Assembly: GCA_965217585.1 (NCBI GenBank) | Contig: OZ244561.1 | Location: 3,296,001 to 3,360,000 of the forward strand | Length of the DNA: 64,000 nucleotides | Direction of reading: 5' to 3' | Source of the DNA: Candidatus Latescibacterota bacterium | Lineage (GTDB): Bacteria > Latescibacterota > UBA2968 > UBA8231 | Shown: piece after piece, positions 50,114 through 58,275 of the stretch | Position numbering within the stretch: the first letter of the stretch is position 1 | How the letters are laid out: the number at the start of each line of letters is the position of its first letter | Notes under the pieces: model-generated | The model's database searches: none | Seen by the model: the letters and a program-made list of their open reading frames with translations, nothing else | Told to the model about the DNA's origin: nothing | Position numbers and translations under genes: made by a program

Positions 50114-50314
50114 ATGTCAACCATATCGGAGATTCAGCAGGCGATCATAAGCCTTTCTAAATCCGACTACGCTCAACTGAGGCGCTGGCTCAATGAATAC
50201 GACTGGAAAGAGTGGGATCAGCAAATCGAAGCGGATTCGGACGACGGAAAGCTGGACTTCCTAGTTGATCAGGCCACGGAAGCCAAACGACAAGGCACGC
50301 TGGAAGACCTGTAG
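50114..50314 (+). CDS. Putative antitoxin
   Basis: 66 aa acidic protein, WDQQIEAD..GKLDFL; overlaps the toxin start. Confidence 0.75.
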   Translation: MSTISEIQQAIISLSKSDYAQLRRWLNEYDWKEWDQQIEADSDDGKLDFLVDQATEAKRQGTLEDL

Positions 50315-50568
50315 TGCATAGGACGACGCCCGCCTTCTGGTCACATTTCGAACGGCTGCCCGAAGCAGCCCAGAGAGTCGCAAGACGCAATTTCGAACGT
50401 CTCAAGGAGAATCCAAGACACGCCTCACTGCGATTCAAGAAAGTCGGCAGATTCTGGTCAGTCCGGGTCGGGCGTTCCTATCGTGCCCTCGCCGTTGAAG
50501 ATGGAGACGATTTTATATGGGTATGGATTGGCAGTCATGCCGACTACGATAGGATAGTTGGTCTGTAA
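50314..50568 (+). CDS. RelE/ParE-like toxin
   Basis: FW..FERLP, NPRHASLRFKKVG..WSVRVG..YRAL, WIGSHADYD. Confidence 0.85.
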   Translation: MHRTTPAFWSHFERLPEAAQRVARRNFERLKENPRHASLRFKKVGRFWSVRVGRSYRALAVEDGDDFIWVWIGSHADYDRIVGL

Positions 50569-50577
50569 GGACTATTC

Positions 50578-51838
50578 CAGGGCAATCGCACCAAAAATTG
50601 AGATTTGTCATAGGGTTATGTTATATTTTCTGTGTCTTTTTCGATAGCGCTGGTGCGCTGCTTCTCTCCCCTTCTCTTGGAACGTTTCCCCATGGCACCT
50701 TCGGCTGATTCACTGATTGAACATTTTTCCCAGGTACCCGATCCCCGTATCGAGCGCAGCCAAAGGCATCGTCTCATCGATATTGTGGTCATTGCCGTGT
50801 GTGGCGCGATCTGCGGGGCCGACAACTGGGTGCATATCGCTGAGTTTGGGCGATCCAAATACGACTGGCTAAAAACCTTTCTGGCGTTGCCCAATGGCAT
50901 TCCTTCCCATGACACCTTCGGCCGCGTCTTCGCCCGGATCTCGCCCGAGCATTTCCAGGACTGTTTCAGTGCTTGGGTCCAATCCCTCCTCCCCAAGCTT
51001 GAGGAAGAGATTGTGCCTATTGATGGCAAAACGTTGCGCCACTCTTATGACCGAACCTCGGGTAAAGCAGCCGTACATATGGTCAATGCCTGGGCGGTGA
51101 AAAACCGACTGGTGTTAGGCCAGTTCCACTGTGAAGGCGGTCTGGACGAGATCACCCTCATTCCCGAACTGCTGCGTGTGCTGGCGCTCAAAGGCTGCAT
51201 CGTCACCGTCGATGCCATCGGCTGCCACAAAAGCGTGGCCGAACAGGTCATCGACCGGCAAGGCGACTACGTACTGGCCGTCAAGGCTAATCAGCCCAAG
51301 CTGTTGCATCATCTGCGTCAGGTCTTCGACCGAGGGGAGCCTCAACTGCATCAGGATCTATCGGTCGACATGTTTGAGACCTACGATGAAAACCACGGCC
51401 GCATTGAGACCCGCCGGTACTGGACCACCGATCAGGTCGACGCTTTTGCCGATGGGACCGCTTGGAAGGGCTTAGGCTTGTTCGGTATGGTTGAAGCCCA
51501 GCGACAGGTAGGCGATCAAGTCTCCGTGGAACGACGCTACTATATCTCCAGCCTGGACAACGATGCCCAGCGGTTTGGTGAAGCGGTGCGTAGTCATTGG
51601 AGCATTGAAAATTCCTTGCACTGGATACTGGATGTGGTCTTCCGTGAAGATGACTCACGGGTACGCACCGGCCATGCCCCGGAAAATATGGCCCTCCTGC
51701 GACAGATTGCCGTGAGTCTGCTCCAGCAAGAGAAGACGGCCAAGGTCGGCGTCCAGACCAAACGGCTCAAGGCCGGATGGGATAACACCTATTTGGCTAA
51801 AGTATTGTCCGCTGGGCACTTTTGATGCGATTGCCCTG
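50578..51838 (+). mobile_element. ISAs1 family element
   Basis: TIR CAGGGCAATCGCA.CAAAA / TTTTGATGCGATTGCCCTG; 9-bp TSD GGACTATTC at 50569-50577 and 51839-51847. Confidence 0.95.
50692..51825 (+). CDS. ISAs1 (H-repeat) transposase
   Basis: DPR, GIPSHDTF, IDGKTLR, TVDAIGC, VKANQ, HGRIETR, HWSIENSLHWILDVVFRED. Confidence 0.95.
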   Translation: MAPSADSLIEHFSQVPDPRIERSQRHRLIDIVVIAVCGAICGADNWVHIAEFGRSKYDWLKTFLALPNGIPSHDTFGRVFARISPEHFQDCFSAWVQSLLPKLEEEIVPIDGKTLRHSYDRTSGKAAVHMVNAWAVKNRLVLGQFHCEGGLDEITLIPELLRVLALKGCIVTVDAIGCHKSVAEQVIDRQGDYVLAVKANQPKLLHHLRQVFDRGEPQLHQDLSVDMFETYDENHGRIETRRYWTTDQVDAFADGTAWKGLGLFGMVEAQRQVGDQVSVERRYYISSLDNDAQRFGEAVRSHWSIENSLHWILDVVFREDDSRVRTGHAPENMALLRQIAVSLLQQEKTAKVGVQTKRLKAGWDNTYLAKVLSAGHF

Positions 51839-51997
51839 GGACTATTCATGTATCGAGGGATCTGCAAACGCTTTTTATGGAGCTGGCCTGACCCTTGTTC
51901 GGGCTCAGCGCCCTGACTGAGAATCCCAAAAGGGCCTTTATACCCCCACGTAGGATTGGGACTGTTTCAACATCGACAAATGCACAGGAGGCTTTAG

Positions 51998-54008
51998 ATG
52001 TCCACAATCGAACAAAGTCTTGAATTACTCACCTTGAAGAAGGTTTTCGCTGAGGGGGAAAGGTCATTTATAATTCCTGACTATCAACGCGGATACTCTT
52101 GGGAGCAGGACCAACGCAAGGACTTACTCAAGGATATAGAATATGGAATGAGCGGTGACTACAGCCACTATACTGGCACATTGGTTGCAGTCAAAAAATG
52201 CTCAATCCGAGATAATGATCGCTTCGAAATAGTAGATGGCCAACAGCGACTGACAACTCTGATAATCCTCTTGTCCTGCATCGCTCATGCCTTTAAACGA
52301 ATGAACACTGCGGTACCAGAGGATTTGAGGCGTTGCTTTATTGAAGAAGGGAGCGAGCGAGGATCAACCCTTCGCAATTCACCTTATCAGATGATCAGGA
52401 TTCCCTTTTCTGGCAGAAGGTCAACGAGCCCGACGCCAGTGGAACAGTTGAAAACAAGGGGGATCAAAACATTGTTGACGCATTTGACCAGTTTAAGAGA
52501 TGGTTAGAACTTGAAAATGAAACATCCCTTTATGAAATCTATGAATATGTTACGAGTAGCCTCGGATTCCTAATGTATGCCCCTGATGACACTAAAGAAA
52601 TAGGCATCATGTTCGAAGTTATCAATAACCGAGGTAAACCACTGAGTGAATTGGAAAAAGTTAAAAACCATCTTATGTATTATTCGGAAAAGAATGACAT
52701 TCAGGATTTAAAAACGGTCGTGAAGGACAAGTGGTCAAATATATTATTGAGGACTGCATAGCTAAAGGAATACGGTCTGGGACGAAGCAAGAGTGAGACG
52801 CCATTCCATTAGAAATGCAGAGATCAATAAGACACCTTAATGGCTGTAATCACACATCCAACGATGACGAAAATGGATTCCTCCGCAACTGCTGGATCGT
52901 ATTTCAGGACACTAATAAAAGCAAAAGCTTCTATGTATATGATAACCTGAAAGACCAGTTCCCCACCATCGAGGTCAACAATTGGGAGCGTCTCAGGGAG
53001 TTCGTCGCATTCCTCGAAGAATCAGCGCATACTTATCGGAAGCTTTATACAAGAGAAGATGTAACACATCAAGAAGAAAATGAATGCCTGACTCGTCTTG
53101 GAAATCAACCTGTATTGGCATCAGTGTTACCATTGATTCTTGTAATACTTAACCGCGAGACTGAAACCTCTACTAGAGTGACTTTATTGCAACTGATTGA
53201 AAAACTCAACTTTCGATTCTATGGGACAGGCATTGCCTCCCGGACTGATTCCGGACAGGGGGAACTTTTTGATTTGGCTCACAATTTCTATAACCATCAC
53301 TCAAAAACTCGTGAAGATGGTGTATTGGTCAATGCATCATGGCTTGAAGAAAATTTACGCAAATTTGTGGCAGATAATGCCAATGATCAAAAACTGATCA
53401 AACATCTGACATTGGATAAAGATGAATCAGGAGACTACTATTCTTGGTCATGGCTGAAATATTTTCTAGCAAGTTATGAGGGGCAATTGGAACGCAATGT
53501 GAAGCGTTCTGAAACATTAGGGAGAAAACTGGCTAAGAGAGACCCCCAAAATCCCAATGACTTTTATCATCTAGAACACATTTGGGCGGTTGGCGATTAT
53601 GAAAAAATTGATGATACATATAATCGTGACATAAATAAAAGGCGTCTTGGAAATTTTATATTGCTCAGAGAATCTCGAAACATAAGTATTTCAAACAAAC
53701 CACCTGAGGAAAAAGTTGAGGAATACCTTGAAAATTTAAAAGACACTCCAGATACATTGATGATTCGAGAATTGAAAGATTTATTCGATAAAGCGAGAGA
53801 AGAGATAGACAACAGACGAAGGAATAAGACATGGAGATATTGGTACGAAGTCTATGAAAGATTTCTCGATCTACACGAGGGAAAATACGTGAATTTTGCG
53901 CTAGATAGATGGCGGGTTGACGGTATTATTAAACCAGTGAAAGAGGTTGCTCTTAACAGTCTCTCAGACAGAAATGAAATTTATGAACTGAAATACGAAA
54001 ATATCTAG
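51998..54008 (+). pseudogene. GmrSD/SspE-like DUF262 + DUF1524 (HNH) restriction protein, disrupted twice
   Basis: IPDYQRGYSW, IVDGQQRLTT, FEVINNRGKPLS, LEHIW...RLGNFILL; 1-bp deletion near 52376 and MITE at 52747; AT-rich. Confidence 0.88.
52747..52827. mobile_element. 81-bp MITE with TA target duplication (IS630/Tc1-mariner-like)
   Basis: Ends TTGAGGACTGCAT / ATGCAGAGATCAA; TA at 52745-52746 and 52828-52829; removal restores ...WSNIL-RHLNG... in frame. Confidence 0.8.
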
Positions 54009-54226
54009 GATTGACCCTGATAGGTGCCGACGGGTAACCAAGCTGTACTGGGAGCTTTGTCGAAGAATCTGCAAACGATCTTCTCGGCTAACCTTTGCCT
54101 GTGCTTAGTGTCTTGACAAAGAACCTCAAAAGGATCCTTATTTTATCTATACTTTCGGTTGCGACGCCAGCGCTAGACAGGCGACTTGGTTAAGCAGCCC
54201 GCAACCAATAATAGTTAGGGGAGAGC

Positions 54227-57200
54227 GTGGCGGTTAAGGCCATCTTCGTCGGCATCAATCAACACCAGCATGCCGAGATTCCGGAGCTGAACGGTGCCCG
54301 GCGTGACGCGACGGCGTTGTGGGCATTGTTTACTGATACTATTGAAGAATTAGCGGCGAGACTGCTGGTTGATGAAGATGCGACCTATGTCGGGGTCTCG
54401 GACGCCATTCTTGGGATCCTGTCAACAGCGGAACACGATGACGTAATCGTTATCAGTTTCGCAGGTCATGGCTCACCAGACGGCAGTCTGGTGCTGTTCG
54501 ATACCGATGTGGCCGATCTCTCGGGCACAGCCCTGCCGATGGCAAAGTTGGCCGACGCGTTTAAGGCGACCAAAGCCCGTGCGGTTCTATGCATTCTTGA
54601 TTGCTGTTTCAGTGGCCAGGCCCCGGCACGTGTGCTTGAAACCGCATCAGTTCCGCGAAACGCCCTTGCGCTCGCGGACATCTACGGGGAGGGACGCATT
54701 CTGCTCGCGGCATGCGCCCCCAGTGAATCAGCGTGGGAACAGCCAGGCACCGGCCATGGGCTACTCACCTATGCCGCAATAGAAGCCCTAACCAAGGCTG
54801 AGGGAGAGTCGGTGAGCTTTCCCGAGATCGCCGGCGAGATCATCCAGTTGACACGCACCGAGGCGGATCGGATCGGTGTGACCCAAACGCCGGTCTTCTT
54901 GGGAAGCGTGCAAGGCGGCCTGACCTTTCCCGTGCTCAAGCGCGGCGACAACTTCGCTGCGGCGTTTCCCGCGGTCGCGATCCACAAGATGACGGGAACA
55001 TTTGCGGAGTTCGCAAACCACGGGCTTCCCCCGGAAATCGTCGAGCAGTGGACGGCAAATTTTCCGCAGGGGCTCAACGAACTGCAACTCACAGCGGTCA
55101 ACGAGCACGGAGTACTCGAAGGCAAGTCATTGCTCGTCGTCGCACCGACAAGCTCAGGCAAGACGTTGATCGGCGAGTTGGCCGCGGTCCAGGCGGTCAC
55201 GGCCGGAAAGAAAGCGGCTTTCCTCTTGCCGTACCGCGCGTTAGTCAACGAGAAGTTCGATGATTTTAGCCAGCGTTACGGCCCGGCAGGGGTGAGGGTT
55301 GCCCGGTGCAGCGGCGACGCGACGGATGGTATCGGTCCGGTGCTATGCGGTCGCTACGATCTCGGCTTCTTCACATACGAGACCTTCCTCAACTTAGCGC
55401 TCGGCTCGCCACGCCTGCTGAACCAATTGGGCTTGGTGGTGCTCGACGAGGGGCAATTCATCACCGATCCGCATCGCGGAATCACCGTGGAGCTTATCCT
55501 CGCGCTGCTGCTAAGGGCGCGCCAGCAGGGTATCCAACCCCAACTCATGGTGTTATCAGCCGTCATCGGCAACCTCAACAACTTTGATCACTGGCTCGCC
55601 TTGCCAGTGCTGAGGTCGCACAAGCGGCCCGTACCGTTGATCGAAGGCGTGCTGGATCGCTGGGGCAAGTTCCAATTTGTCGATGTGGACGGCGCGACGA
55701 AGACGGAGGAGTTGCTGCCGACACACCAAATCGTGCAACGCCGAGACGAGCCGAGTTCGCAGGACGTGATCGTGCCGTTGGCGAAGCACTTGGTCGCGAA
55801 TGGAGAGAAGTTGCTAATCTTCCGCAACATGCGGGGCACCACCCAGGGGTGCGCCCGGTATTTGTCAAAAGAGCTGGGGCTCGGTCCCGCTACCGTAGTT
55901 ATCGACGATCTACCGAACCAGGATTTGACGGGAGCCTCGCAAAACTTACGCGAGTGCCTGCTCGGCGGAACGGCGTTTCACAACACGAATCTCTTGCGCG
56001 CTGAGCGTGAAGCGATTGAAAAGGGCTTCCGCAACTCTGCTGGTGGGATTCACGCCTTGGCCGCCACCACGACCTTGGCTGCCGGCATCAATACGCCTTC
56101 ATCCACCGTAGTCCTCGCGGAAAACGAGTTCGTGGGGGAGGACGGGCGTCCCTTCACTATCGCAGAGTACAAGAACATGGCCGGACGTGCCGGGCGCCTT
56201 GGCTACAACGAAATCGGCAAGGCCATTATCCTCGCCGATACGCCGTTCGAGCGAGCCCAGCTTTTCCACAAATATGTGTTGGGAACGCCAGAACCTGTCG
56301 CCTCATCGTTCCAGCAGAGCGATCTTCCGACCTGGACACTACGTCTGCTGAGCCAGGTGCGTCGCGTGCAGACTAGCGAAATTCCTAGCCTCTTAGTTAA
56401 CACGTTCGGTGGATACTCGGCCTCTCGGTCCAATCCCCAGTGGGTCCGGTTGGTAAAGGCCGAGGTGTCGGCGTTCGTCGCGCGGCTACTGAAGGCCGGA
56501 CTGGCGGAGCAAGAGGGCGACCTCATCTATTTGACCTTGCTCGGGCGGGCCTGCGGGTCTTCGTCGCTATCGTTCGAGTCGAGCCTGCGGCTGATCGAGC
56601 TAATGAAGGAATTGAACGCCGCACAAGCTCCTCCTGTTCACATGCTTGGATTCATCCAGGTTCTCGACGAGATGGACGCTATCTATACACCTGTGATGAA
56701 GAGGGGCCAGTCCGAGAGCGTTCGCGCGAGCGATGTGGCGCAGCGCTTCGGCCATCAAATGACTCAGATACTACAGCGTTACTGTCGGGATTACTTCGAG
56801 TACTATTCGCGATGCAAACGCGCGTCGCTTCTGTATGACTGGATTAAGGGTACGCCTGTCGAAGTCATTGAGAAGCAATTCTCAACAACGCCTTTCCAGG
56901 GAGCGATTGGCTACGGCAACATCATTGGCATTGCTGATGGTGCACGATTTCACCTTCGCTCCGCGCATCAGATCCTTTCGACCTTGTTCCCGGAAGAACA
57001 GGAGTTTCTTGCGGCGGTGGACGAATTACTGCTGCGACTTGAATTCGGATTACCTGTGGCCGCGATTCCCCTTACCGCCCTGCCCTTGGCATTAAGCAGG
57101 GGACAATACTTGGCCCTCTTTGCGGCAGGCTGCTCGACAGCCGATGAGGTGAACGAGCTTGAGATGGACACGCTCACCGAATGCGTCGGTGCAAATGTCG

Positions 57201-57232
57201 CGTCCTTACTTCGACCGGAGCAGCAAGATTAG
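54227..57232 (+). CDS. Caspase-like (peptidase C14) protease fused to a Ski2/Hel308-like SF2 helicase
   Basis: FVGIN, FAGHG (His), ILDCCFSG (Cys); APTSSGKT, PYRALVNE, DEGQ, LSAV, TTTLAAGINTP, NMAGRAGR, LTLLG winged helix. Confidence 0.92.
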   Translation: MAVKAIFVGINQHQHAEIPELNGARRDATALWALFTDTIEELAARLLVDEDATYVGVSDAILGILSTAEHDDVIVISFAGHGSPDGSLVLFDTDVADLSGTALPMAKLADAFKATKARAVLCILDCCFSGQAPARVLETASVPRNALALADIYGEGRILLAACAPSESAWEQPGTGHGLLTYAAIEALTKAEGESVSFPEIAGEIIQLTRTEADRIGVTQTPVFLGSVQGGLTFPVLKRGDNFAAAFPAVAIHKMTGTFAEFANHGLPPEIVEQWTANFPQGLNELQLTAVNEHGVLEGKSLLVVAPTSSGKTLIGELAAVQAVTAGKKAAFLLPYRALVNEKFDDFSQRYGPAGVRVARCSGDATDGIGPVLCGRYDLGFFTYETFLNLALGSPRLLNQLGLVVLDEGQFITDPHRGITVELILALLLRARQQGIQPQLMVLSAVIGNLNNFDHWLALPVLRSHKRPVPLIEGVLDRWGKFQFVDVDGATKTEELLPTHQIVQRRDEPSSQDVIVPLAKHLVANGEKLLIFRNMRGTTQGCARYLSKELGLGPATVVIDDLPNQDLTGASQNLRECLLGGTAFHNTNLLRAEREAIEKGFRNSAGGIHALAATTTLAAGINTPSSTVVLAENEFVGEDGRPFTIAEYKNMAGRAGRLGYNEIGKAIILADTPFERAQLFHKYVLGTPEPVASSFQQSDLPTWTLRLLSQVRRVQTSEIPSLLVNTFGGYSASRSNPQWVRLVKAEVSAFVARLLKAGLAEQEGDLIYLTLLGRACGSSSLSFESSLRLIELMKELNAAQAPPVHMLGFIQVLDEMDAIYTPVMKRGQSESVRASDVAQRFGHQMTQILQRYCRDYFEYYSRCKRASLLYDWIKGTPVEVIEKQFSTTPFQGAIGYGNIIGIADGARFHLRSAHQILSTLFPEEQEFLAAVDELLLRLEFGLPVAAIPLTALPLALSRGQYLALFAAGCSTADEVNELEMDTLTECVGANVASLLRPEQQD

Positions 57233-57406: not shown

Positions 57407-58275
57407 GAAGCTGTTGAGTTATTCAGATGCATTTAGCGACCGTACTCTTTATCATGGCAATACGAATCATGTTCTCTGCGGATTGGGTGAGGATTTCGAA
57501 GTCTTTCGCCAAGCGTCGAAATCCACCCAACCAAGCCAAGGTTCGTTCGATGATCCAGCGTTTGGGCACCACTTGGAACCCTTGGGTTGGTTTATCCGCT
57601 ATATCGAGTCGCAACCCCAACAGGTTTTCAACGAATTCAACGGTGGTACCGCGATAGCCTTGGTCGCCGCAGAAGGCTTCGACCGAATCATACTTTTCCG
57701 CGACCCGATCACATACGTCCCATCCTTGGCTGGTATCGGCCACATGGGCGGCATGTACTTGGATGGTCAGCATATTACCCAGCGTATCGGTGGCGAGGTG
57801 GCGTTTACGTCCTTTGATCTTTTTTCCCCCCATCCACGCCTCGATCCTGACTGGCATATTGGGTTTTAACCGATTGCGAATCGATCAAGGCATAGGTCGG
57901 ATGTTCGTTTTTGCCCTGCTTGTGACGGGCGCGCTCATTCAGCGCGTCCAAGGCTTGTTCCCACACGCCACGCTGATTCCAGCGTCGGTAATGGTCATAG
58001 ACGGTATCCCAAGGGGAAAATCAAGCGGCAGCATCCGCCACGGAATACCCCCTTTGACGACATATAAAATGGCATTGACCACCTCGCGTTTGGCATACTT
58101 GCCGGGGTTGCCCCGGGGATCAGGACGGTCGAAAAACCCCGCGATCAGGGCCCATTCTGGATCAGTCAAGTCACTTGGATACCCGCCCATACTAAAAGCC
58201 TCCCTGCGCAAAAAAGACAGCAAGCAATACATTATACATACAATACATACAGAGCTTTTTTAACTCAACAGCTTC
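57407..58275 (-). mobile_element. IS5 family (IS1031-like) element, copy 2, transposase frameshifted
   Basis: Same 15-bp TIRs as copy 1; TAA TSD at 57404-57406 and 58276-58278; orfA from ATG 58190 shifts frame at DFP (about 58012). Confidence 0.92.

Follow-up and report, generated by a model that had tools for sequence, protein, structure and literature searches.

A single gene of Candidatus Latescibacterota joins, in one chain, a caspase-fold protease and a Hel308-type helicase, both with complete predicted catalytic sets. It lies in the window, the 64,000-nucleotide stretch of contig OZ244561.1 that we analysed, and it is an accessory, horizontally mobile gene that is plasmid-borne in many lineages. 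We give about even odds (roughly 0.5) to the fusion being a self-contained conflict protein, directed against phages or plasmids, of the kind in which an NTPase sensor is wired to a protease. The gene and its parts are as follows:

54217-54225, plus strand: Shine-Dalgarno-like AGGGGAGAG, purine-rich and just 5' of the GTG, read directly from the sequence
54227-57232, plus strand: caspase-Hel308 helicase fusion gene, an open reading frame with homologs 72-94% identical across 86-100% of its length
54227-54946, plus strand: predicted caspase-fold (peptidase C14) domain, residues 1-240, by Pfam and Foldseek
54467-54469, plus strand: codon of the predicted catalytic His81 (FAGHG), His in 58/58 relatives and in 23/23 N-terminal domains
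54605-54607, plus strand: codon of the predicted catalytic Cys127 (LDCCFSG), Cys in 58/58 relatives
54611-54667, plus strand: loop after the catalytic Cys, residues 129-147, pLDDT < 50 in both models
54947-55033, plus strand: linker between protease and helicase, residues 241-269, by model and N-terminal alignment
55034-55636, plus strand: RecA1, about residues 270-470, by Pfam DEAD (296-448) and motif conservation
55664-56296, plus strand: RecA2, about residues 480-690, by Pfam Helicase_C (585-659), R654 and R657
56315-57229, plus strand: winged helix, ratchet (domain 4) and helix-hairpin-helix-like domain 5, about residues 697-1001 with approximate boundaries, by Helicase_dom4_arc, profile and TM

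The reading frame is intact and encodes 1001 residues (P0001), from a GTG at 54227 to a stop codon included at 57232. This start agrees with the N-termini of the homologs, which read M-A-[IV]-K-A-[IV]-F-V-G-[IV], and the gene has a GC content of 0.57-0.60, lower than the 0.66 measured a few kb upstream. A prior reading made from the letters alone (the sequence-only reading) had proposed an intact 1001-residue frame in which a peptidase C14 domain with both catalytic residues precedes a complete helicase. The open reading frame, profiles and models confirmed this architecture, and the His81-Cys127 dyad is present and kept across the 58 relatives (27-52% identity) that made up our conservation set.

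The N-terminal domain is predicted to have the caspase-hemoglobinase fold. With residues 1-258 searched alone, Pfam Peptidase_C14 matched at 45.3 bits against a cut-off of 21.4 (E 1.1e-11); in a Pfam scan of the whole protein this match goes unreported. The whole protein scored 93 bits on NCBIfam caspase_w_EACC1, under the cut-off of 140, and 48.7 bits on the PADLOC 'caspase' model. An AlphaFold2 model of the N-terminal domain (pLDDT 83.5) gave Foldseek matches, at probability 1.00 and TM about 0.56-0.66, to the bacterial caspase-fold protein GSU0716, T. brucei metacaspase 2, MALT1 and caspase-6 (E 5e-10 to 1e-8). Two residues before the catalytic Cys, Asp125 is kept in 57/58 relatives and presumably recalls the D-x-C of metacaspases with Arg/Lys specificity at P1. 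The loop after the Cys is of low confidence in the full-length and N-terminal models alike and may be equivalent to the caspase intersubunit linker, which joins the large subunit to the small one. Since the position of Arg144 in this loop is basic in just 28/58 relatives, it offers no family-wide self-cleavage site. At the junction with the helicase, Gly240 and Pro248 are invariant in the N-terminal alignment.

The rest of the chain carries a full set of helicase domains. On the whole protein, Pfam placed DEAD at 296-448, Helicase_C at 585-659 and, at 23.2 bits and thus below its 27-bit cut-off, Helicase_dom4_arc at 824-941. SF2 motifs Q, I, II and VI are complete (Gln287 of the Q motif, Walker A GKT at 311-313, motif II DEGQ at 407-410, and Arg654 and Arg657 of motif VI), with Q287, G311, K312, D407, E408, R654 and R657 each found in 58/58 relatives; position 410 is Q in 41/58 and H in 17/58. 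A profile built from the 58 relatives matched archaeal Hel308/Hjm (2zj2, 2p6r, 2va8) over the whole length at about 407 bits, covering profile positions 275-994 of 1009. The full-length AlphaFold2 model (pLDDT 91.4, pTM 0.91) superposed on Hel308/Hjm structures (2va8, 2zj8, 2zj5, 9b15, 2p6r) at TM 0.80-0.87, normalised by target length, and on the helicase domain of Pol theta at TM 0.76-0.79. By profile and model the domain order, RecA1-RecA2-winged helix-ratchet-HhH, is that of Hel308. Identity to the structurally matched Hel308 proteins is about 22-26%, and the NCBIfam equivalogs gave no sign of orthology with archaeal Hel308, scoring 170-287 bits against cut-offs of 887-1216 (best, 287 against 887; helicase_Hel308, 211 against 1200). 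ASCC3, Brr2 and Slh1 stand beside Hel308 among the best profile matches, a range that leaves the type of nucleic acid broad.

By analogy with known systems, the helicase of such a conflict protein would sense phage nucleic acid, the caspase would be switched on by dimerisation and abortive infection would be the outcome. The helicase would load on DNA structures arising from infection or genome damage, namely 3' tails, forks and broken DNA, which are substrates of Hel308 and HamB. ATP-driven engagement would then free an autoinhibited caspase domain, or gather several copies on one DNA, and the gathered caspase domains could activate by proximity, as caspases do. The active protease would cut cellular or phage proteins, stopping growth or killing the cell before the phage cycle ends, and a dedicated zymogen effector would not be needed.

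The surroundings of the gene in the window comprise the following:

50114-50568, plus strand: small ORF (50114-50314) and ParE-like toxin ORF (50314-50568), a candidate toxin-antitoxin pair
50577-51839, plus strand: ISAs1-type insertion sequence with 20-nt inverted repeats
51998-54008, plus strand: remnant of a GmrSD-type restriction gene in at least three frames, GC 0.38-0.43
57423-58232, minus strand: IS5-family transposase encoded by two ORFs (DUF4096 followed by DDE)

The fusion gene is thus placed between the GmrSD remnant with the ParE-like ORF on one side and IS5 on the other. In the setting drawn by the sequence-only reading, the two insertion sequences, the ParE-like ORF and the small ORF, which may be the antitoxin, held up; its GmrSD-like gene needs correcting, as the gene directly upstream is a pseudogene broken into at least three frames, 51998-52507, 52573-52761 and 52815-54008. 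The 218-nt gap before the fusion gene has no coding room, and neither a SAVED nor a CHAT gene was found near the fusion gene in the window. The broader claim of a defence or mobile island was borne out in the window, in other genomes and on plasmids.

Other defence and toxin modules lie around the fusion, none of them a fixed partner. In at least 17 of the 44 loci with three or more other genes, a neighbour family that recurs carries a defence or toxin annotation. This is a plain count among annotated recurrent families rather than an enrichment against controls, and many of these loci are close relatives sharing one island and are not independent. These neighbours are QatABCD, PDC-S32 with an AbiJ_NTD4 domain, a HEPN protein, AbiEii (AbiE), an AAA_21 ATPase, PLD with an SF1 helicase, and RES, while plasmid copies adjoin NB-ARC and TIR genes and an ABC-three-component system. 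No conserved small ORF was found within 500 nt on either side across the loci, a comparison of ORFs that turned up no candidate EACC1 gene beside the caspase. The earlier remark that no substrate gene is adjacent agrees with these data, as none lies here and no neighbour is conserved in the 44 loci.

These neighbourhoods bear on an unlikely alternative, in which the caspase, rather than killing by its own action, cleaves one particular target, either a zymogen (pore-forming protein, nuclease or hydrolase) or a factor of the host or phage; this target would be unlinked or would vary among lineages. Characterised caspase-sensor fusions are described as acting on a dedicated adjacent zymogen, be it EACC1, a hydrolase or a nuclease (10.1101/2025.11.14.688446; Canu in PMC12799240), and the caspase here is nearest the EACC1-associated type, albeit below the cut-off (93 against 140 bits). 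Sub-clades also show tight coupling with a neighbour: in 5 loci family F2 ends 0-9 nt short of the fusion's start, in 6 loci family F1 begins 61 nt beyond the fusion's stop, and in 2 loci QatA overlaps that stop. However, the commonest neighbour families reach just 7/48 and 6/48 loci. Moreover, F1 (a full-length match to the single-gene candidate PDC-S32) and the HEPN protein F6 together look like a separate module, and homologs of F1 and F6 were not found in this genome, where a pair resembling F3-F2 stands alone elsewhere.

By sequence comparison, the protease and helicase halves evolve as a single unit. The identities of the caspase and helicase parts correlate with r = 0.85 (57 relatives), and in a FastTree tree of the helicase part (82 rows) all 58 caspase fusions form one clade with support of 99. 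Instead of the caspase, other domains are appended in the sister clade and in one nested relative; the leads are a restriction-endonuclease-like domain, C-terminal, in the sister clade and a cyclase-like domain in the caspase's place in the nested lineage. Such swaps fit a constant sensor with variable effectors better than a constant effector, which counts against a distinctly unlikely scheme in which the helicase acts as effector under regulation by the caspase, so that cleavage of itself or of an inhibitor would license the motor to dismantle phage or plasmid replication intermediates without cell death. In favour of that scheme, the loop after the catalytic Cys is disordered in both models, at the site where caspases are processed, and the ATPase motifs are complete and invariant, which speaks for the importance of motor activity; the C-terminal domain 5 of Hel308 is reportedly autoinhibitory. 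Yet the loop is without a cleavage residue conserved across the family. Extending the reading of the fusion as a self-contained conflict protein, we tentatively propose that a mobile bacterial family of the Hel308 clade might consist of immune sensors with swappable effectors, its caspase form being a one-protein path that runs from recognising foreign or aberrant DNA to a cell death driven by the caspase. If so, this would be the simplest known version of a logic that in animals is divided among nucleic-acid sensors, adaptors and caspases.

The distribution of the fusion is patchy and horizontal, and the vertical inheritance of a housekeeping gene, named by the sequence-only reading as speaking against its proposal, was not seen. 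Only one of the 24 other genomes of the same genus holds a copy, at 45% identity, and the fusion was found in 0/16 genomes from other genera of the class. The best 120 protein matches are 72-94% identical, the named ones all coming from Alpha-, Beta- or Gammaproteobacteria, and copies at 47-50% identity occur in Bacteroidota, Cyanobacteria, Acidobacteriota, Myxococcota and Patescibacteria. The genome loci number 48 and come from at least 8 phyla; most are chromosomal islands, and in at least 3/48 the fusion is broken by insertions or frame breaks. Matches were found to 20 plasmid records (6 typed as conjugative and 4 as mobilizable), with the caspase part present in 17 and at least 80% of the protein covered in 15. 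Copies adjoin partition and replication genes. Phage records yielded just one weak, partial match.

The plasmid records, the copies next to partition and replication genes, and the near absence of phage matches would suit a role as weapon or addiction module, by which mobile elements exclude rivals or punish their own loss rather than serve host immunity. We hold this to be very unlikely, given that the loci are mostly chromosomal islands and the neighbours usual anti-phage modules; it also overlaps with our preferred reading, the difference being who benefits. A housekeeping helicase for DNA repair or replication restart with an incidental protease domain is highly improbable, for although the nearest solved structures (Hel308 and the PolQ helicase domain) are repair enzymes, the fusion was not found in 23/24 same-genus or 16/16 other-genera genomes of the class, its copies in distant classes are 72-94% identical, it occurs on plasmids and here between insertion sequences, copies are split in at least 3/48 loci, and the Hel308 equivalog scores 287 against a cut-off of 887.

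Public records label such proteins merely 'DEAD/DEAH box helicase'. With helicase-only labels and a caspase missed in whole-protein scans, censuses of defence genes may overlook this family, which is large and spread over many phyla.

Among the PADLOC v2.0.0 models, which the earlier reading had suggested running, none is dedicated to a caspase-helicase fusion or covers it. The best-scoring model, PDC-M23 component B (108 bits), aligns residues 569-693 with model positions 615-734 of 1060, and relatives without the caspase score 113-131 bits. We rejected this assignment because the match is partial, and a score that is the same or higher without the caspase reflects the shared helicase core only. 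The combination of Peptidase_C14, DEAD and Helicase_C is tabulated for 3/473 cyanobacterial orthocaspases (PMC8283722), and a DEXDc domain is listed with orthocaspases or metacaspase-like proteins (PMC7475262). In the sections of these surveys that were available, the orthocaspases figure as table entries without family definition, Hel308 assignment, genomic context or function, so the architecture is not unseen, only unstudied. A functional study of a caspase-Hel308 fusion was not found in the literature, as the earlier reading had supposed; the novelty of the architecture, which it had left to a search, did not survive the tabulated entries.

Hachiman (nuclease HamA with the Ski2-like helicase HamB) likewise couples a Ski2/Hel308-like SF2 helicase to a destructive effector in defence islands. 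HamB is described as holding HamA in check and freeing it upon DNA damage, and as behaving like Hel308 in sensing loss of DNA integrity (PMC12278908). However, the similarity to HamB is limited to the helicase core: the best PADLOC HamB model scores 102 bits over core stretches only (e.g. 287-471), and HamB 8vx9 matches the family profile at 186 bits across 294-672 only. Measured by profile, Hel308/Hjm/PolQ-helicase is much the nearer match, at 407 bits over the whole length as opposed to 186 bits over the core alone for HamB. No HamA/DUF1837 (PF08878) gene adjoins the fusion, whose neighbours are the GmrSD remnant and IS5; the only PF08878 match in the genome (C1:149183-149593) lies 3.2 Mb away, next to a 29%-identical helicase. 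With a core-only match, no adjacent HamA and a separate HamA-helicase pair, we rejected the fusion as a Hachiman HamB. The earlier assignment to a complete helicase of Hel308/Ski2 type was right, and HamB gave way to Hel308 as the nearest parallel. Certain Hachiman variants are reported to drive a trypsin-like protease (PMC12799240, 10.1101/2025.09.03.673762), and HamM-HamA(trypsin)-HamB illustrates that a protease can be the first effector; there the protease is trypsin-fold, whereas here it is caspase-fold, fused in one chain and without an MBL nuclease partner.

The fusion shares its five-domain architecture and fold with archaeal Hel308/Hjm as well as with the helicase-like domain of DNA polymerase theta. 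It differs from archaeal Hel308/Hjm in being bacterial and mobile, in its N-terminal caspase and in a motif II that reads DExQ in 41/58 relatives. Tuck et al. state that bacteria have no Hel308 (PMC12278908). The present family bears on that claim.

The fusion is not type IV Thoeris, as no TIR-domain gene, and thus no TIR partner, lies among the genes from 44.6 to 62.7 kb of the window. The effector of that system is reportedly caspase-like; it and the PCaspase of type III CRISPR cascades cut many cellular proteins. The fusion would resemble both in having a bacterial caspase-like protease as terminal effector, but they are switched by a TIR-made signal or a neighbouring protease, whereas here the fused helicase would be the switch. 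In caspase-STAND fusions (Avs12 with EACC1, caspase with an alpha/beta-hydrolase zymogen, and bacterial Apaf-1 orthologues), phage proteins are described as activating caspase-like domains fused to STAND sensors (10.1101/2025.11.14.688446; PMC13581612). The caspase here is nearest the type associated with EACC1 (93 bits, cut-off 140), but its sensor is an SF2 helicase instead of a STAND ATPase, and comparison of neighbouring ORFs turned up no conserved zymogen gene (EACC1, hydrolase or other) beside it to match the dedicated adjacent zymogen of those systems, a point against our preferred reading. Because sensor and protease share one chain without an obligatory partner, the coupling of DNA engagement, ATP and protease could be studied with one purified protein. 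Should phage protection prove true, the fusion would be a compact single-gene defence system that joins genome-integrity-sensing helicases, as in Hachiman, with caspase-type executioners, as in gasdermin, Thoeris IV and Avs-caspase systems, which have so far been studied in separate proteins.

The gene at 54227-57232 is a real feature of the window, and the sequence-only reading, which had taken it for a caspase joined to a Hel308/Ski2-like helicase, described it correctly. It forms a single open frame of 1001 codons on the forward strand. The purine-rich AGGGGAGAG lies upstream, its last base 1 nt short of the GTG start, and the N-terminus is consistent with those of homologs. The catalytic motifs named beforehand are all in place: FAGHG (with His81), LDCCFSG (with Cys127), GKT at 311-313, DEGQ at 407-410 and a motif VI with two arginines. 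The surrounding features, in order, are as follows.

Features around the fusion gene (window coordinates)
before 50114: HIT-family gene
50114-50568: small ORF and ParE-like ORF
50577-51839: ISAs1-type element with inverted repeats
51998-54008: GmrSD-type gene in at least three frames, a remnant, before the fusion gene
54227-57232, forward strand: fusion gene, GTG start at 54227, stop at 57232
57423-58232, opposite strand to the fusion gene: IS5-family transposase, two ORFs
beyond the IS5 element, opposite strand to the fusion gene: unrelated genes

The fusion gene is indeed bracketed by insertion sequences, the ISAs1-type element (50577-51839) before it and the IS5-family transposase (57423-58232) after it. 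The GmrSD-like gene said to lie directly upstream is present but not intact: it is a pseudogene broken over at least three frames, with an N-terminal domain at 51998-52507, a 62-codon piece at 52573-52761 and a C-terminal part at 52815-54008 in different frames, and its GC content (0.38-0.43) is far under that of its surroundings. Two stretches of about 90 nt, at 51853-51945 and 54060-54150, closely precede the GmrSD remnant and the fusion gene, respectively, and are about 70% alike. Diverged copies (70-84% identity over 36-90 nt) occur at about eight further sites scattered over the 7.32-Mb genome; these copies rule out integron attC sites or cassette borders, and the stretches are a small dispersed repeat. 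A scan for promoters and terminators gave chance-level results, and no tRNA genes were found at 40-64 kb of the window.

When the whole fusion protein is scanned against Pfam, only DEAD (296-448, 72 bits), Helicase_C (585-659) and Helicase_dom4_arc (824-941, below its cut-off) are reported, and Peptidase_C14 is absent. By contrast, a separate scan of residues 1-258 returns Peptidase_C14 with 45.3 bits, above the cut-off of 21.4. The region 54227-55000 is thus an annotation blind spot, in which the peptidase surfaces for the N-terminus alone and is missed in the whole-protein scan. A PF00656 search of the organism's own genome gave zero matches and missed even the fusion gene, and is therefore uninformative on other caspases there. 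Among NCBIfam models, 'caspase, EACC1-associated type' scores 93 bits against a cut-off of 140. Four Hel308-type models score 170-287 bits over residues 267-993, each far under its equivalog cut-off; by these cut-offs the fusion protein is not an archaeal Hel308 orthologue.

A full-length AlphaFold2 model, built with 58 relatives as input alignment, reached a mean pLDDT of 91.4 and a pTM of 0.91. Foldseek ranked the archaeal Hel308/Hjm structures 2va8, 2zj8, 2zj5, 9b15 and 2p6r at the top (TM by target 0.80-0.87), followed by the helicase-like domain of DNA polymerase theta (TM 0.76-0.79). The profile built from these 58 sequences aligns with Hel308/Hjm along its whole length, at about 407 bits (profile positions 275-994 of 1009), whereas the match to ASCC3, Brr2 and Slh1 stops near position 831 and that to HamB, the helicase of Hachiman (8vx9), is confined to the motor core (294-672, 186 bits). 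Modelled separately (pLDDT 83.5), the N-terminal 260 residues match GSU0716, a caspase-fold protein of bacteria, as well as T. brucei metacaspase 2, MALT1 and caspase-6/-7, with probability 1.00 and a TM of about 0.6. Based on these domain and structure matches, the protein therefore comprises a caspase-fold protease, a linker of about 30 residues and a five-domain Hel308-type helicase. The sole internal disordered stretch of the full-length model, residues 129-147, lies right behind the catalytic cysteine. In the model this loop stands out as a candidate for a regulatory or processing role, yet it holds no residue conserved family-wide: Arg144, considered as a family-wide self-cleavage site, is kept in close relatives and basic in just 28 of 58 deep relatives, and was rejected as such. 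A homodimer prediction for the caspase domain (two copies of the 260-residue N-terminus) scored 0.00, which counts neither for nor against dimerisation.

Both halves are conserved across a large family. A word-indexed search gave 1758 matches among 8000 scored candidates, the best 120 of which share 72-94% identity over 86-100% of the length and are named in their source just 'DEAD/DEAH box helicase' or 'helicase'; organisms named among these 120 include Rhodoligotrophos, Metallibacterium, Cupriavidus, Pandoraea, Pseudomonas, Chromobacterium, Azoarcus and Methylobacterium. An exhaustive search of 50%-identity representatives returned 22964 matches at E <=1e-3 and 1034 at E <=1e-30. From its best 150 rows we chose by eye 57 full-length relatives (989-1090 aa, with the match beginning within the first ~23 residues and extending past about residue 960), leaving out fragments, rows that lack the N-terminal part and those with a shortened match. 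Across the 58 rows of the alignment made from them, at 27-52% identity to the query, His81, Cys127, Gln287, Gly311, Lys312, Asp407, Glu408, Arg654 and Arg657 are invariant and Asp125 is kept in 57 rows; the last residue of motif II is Q in 41 rows and H in 17. Across these rows the caspase part is 26-51% and the helicase part 26-53% identical to the query, and the two values are correlated (r = 0.85). Judged from this conservation, both enzymes are complete and jointly under purifying selection.

The gene is sparsely and unevenly distributed near its host. Among 40 related genomes checked, a match occurs in one of 24 other species of the genus (45% identity) and in none of 16 genomes from other genera of the class; the organism's own genome carries a single copy. 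A pattern scan of species-representative genomes found 48 loci. Those at 63-80% identity come mostly from Alpha-, Beta- and Gammaproteobacteria, together with a single Acidobacteriaceae MAG and short contigs that bear the labels Streptomyces and Eremiobacteraceae, and those at 47-50% include Hymenobacter, Niastella, Scytonema, Pyrinomonadaceae, Polyangiales and a Nomurabacteria MAG. Matches also occur in twenty plasmid records, of which 17 include the caspase part and 15 span at least 80% of the protein. Represented here are plasmids of Ralstonia, Candidatus Manganitrophus, Bradyrhizobium, Acaryochloris, Agrobacterium, Fibrella and Hymenobacter, and six of the 20 are typed conjugative. Phage records gave a single weak partial match. 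The GC content of the fusion gene is 0.57-0.60, against 0.66 at 40-42 kb of the window and the low values of the GmrSD remnant. Distribution and GC content together are those of an accessory gene that moves horizontally.

Some copies are split, at the loci L025, L039 and L042 (also L047): in L025 and L039 extra ORFs, among them the small recurrent family F60, lie within the fusion gene, and in L042 its frame is broken. Such copies are in keeping with a costly, often inactivated gene.

We then predicted the ORFs of the 48 loci and grouped them by clustering into neighbour families. No family generally accompanies the fusion gene, and the 500 nt flanking it on each side contain no conserved small ORF; the search for conserved partner genes proposed in the sequence-only reading thus turned up no fixed partner. 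The recurrent families are F1, downstream of the fusion gene in seven loci, F2, upstream of it in six, F3 in five and F6 in four. Such recurring neighbours are confined to sub-clades of the fusion and look like modules independent of it. F1 bears an AbiJ_NTD4 domain; its full-length PADLOC match, at 159 bits, is to the single-gene candidate PDC-S32. F6 encodes a HEPN protein (Hypoth_Ymh; Aga_HEPN model), and neither F1 nor F6 was found in the organism's own genome. In five loci a two-gene F3-F2 unit (7996-9992 in L001, and relatives) stops 0-9 nt ahead of the fusion gene. F3 has a winged-helix match with a D..E.K-like motif ahead of it, and F2 has no family match in Pfam and PDB sequence searches and bears a nucleotidyltransferase-like G-G...D-x-D motif. 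From these motifs the unit looks like an AbiE-type pair of regulator and nucleotidyltransferase (toxin-antitoxin), albeit without a Pfam match for F2. A similar pair stands alone on the organism's own contig (whole-contig positions 7278471-7280064), about 3.9 Mb from the fusion gene.

Further neighbours seen repeatedly are AbiEii together with an AAA_21 ATPase, a PLD protein alongside an SF1 helicase, a RES toxin, a complete QatABCD system, and integrases beside guaB-guaA. At about 13000 in L013 and L015 there is an overlap of 4-11 nt between the first QatABCD gene and the fusion gene's stop codon, and the two genes may therefore be co-transcribed there. Annotated defence or toxin families occur in 17 of the 44 loci with at least three other genes, a raw count that includes several near-copies of one island and rests on annotated recurrent families, the other 27 loci holding singleton neighbours only. 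On plasmids, the gene is found with NB-ARC and TIR genes (Acaryochloris) and with an ABC-three-component system (Hymenobacter). The fusion gene is thus mobile and sits among defence genes without a fixed partner.

A FastTree phylogeny of the helicase part alone, on the 58 fusions and 24 caspase-less rows of the exhaustive search (82 rows), places all fusions and five caspase-less rows in one clade (support 99). Four of these five are short (730-822 aa), and truncated calls or split genes may account for them. The fifth is P0184 (1020 aa), whose N-terminal domain (246 residues) is of another kind and does not resemble the caspase profile (hhalign probability 0.4). A sister clade (support 99; P0219-P0271) takes up the remaining 19 rows, which are 739-966 aa long, most of them about 900-950, and it includes proteins with a C-terminal extension of about 190 residues. 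Pfam finds the Hel308 core in nine caspase-less proteins (906-966 aa) and no family over their last 150-200 residues, and Pfam and PDB sequence searches returned nothing significant for the P0184 N-terminus or for the C-terminus of P0238. A language-model/structure atlas offers leads only: a restriction-endonuclease fold (Mrr or FokI-cleavage; TM 0.66-0.72, feature score 0.86) for the C-terminal extension and a class III nucleotide cyclase (score 0.90) for the P0184 N-terminus. This variety of appended domains suggests swappable effectors on a single sensor chassis.

By analogy with HamB and Hel308, the helicase would bind aberrant or foreign DNA, and its ATP-driven engagement would release or cluster the caspase domains, as might also be expected from sensor-fused caspases; on the model of the latter, the freed protease would then harm the cell or the phage. 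We infer all three steps from these systems.

Among known systems, Hachiman comes closest to hand, with HamB as its helicase and HamA as its nuclease. PADLOC HamB models match the core of the fusion alone, at about 100 bits, and no HamA lies next to the fusion gene; on both counts the fusion protein is not a HamB. The only PF08878 (HamA) match of the organism's own genome (contig positions 149183-149593, 37.9 bits) adjoins a helicase 29% identical to the motor core of the fusion, and this locus (146866-149593) looks like a canonical Hachiman pair, separate from the fusion gene. A described system had been named as a possible outcome of a PADLOC check, and in PADLOC v2.0.0 no model covers the fusion protein, nor its relatives with other appended domains. 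We found no published functional study of a caspase-helicase fusion, although a listing in supplementary material is possible. In excerpts of the orthocaspase literature, DEAD and Helicase_C domains are reported on 3 of 473 cyanobacterial orthocaspases (PMC8283722) and a DEXDc domain is given in a survey (PMC7475262); the helicase passages of two Aravind-group papers (PMC7159879, PMC8195603) are silent on the fusion. Excerpts of related work cover Hachiman itself (PMC12278908), nuclease-protease pairs and the Canu caspase-nuclease system (PMC12799240), a trypsin-MBL Hachiman (10.1101/2025.09.03.673762), protease-activated effectors (10.1101/2025.11.14.688446) and bacterial Apaf-1 orthologues with caspase-like N-termini (PMC13581612); in that of PMC13069673, caspase features only as type IV Thoeris. 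The fusion family is uncharacterised and widespread, and by analogy it would best be filed with immunity of the 'NTPase sensor plus protease effector' kind, as a variant whose sensor is a Hel308-type helicase.
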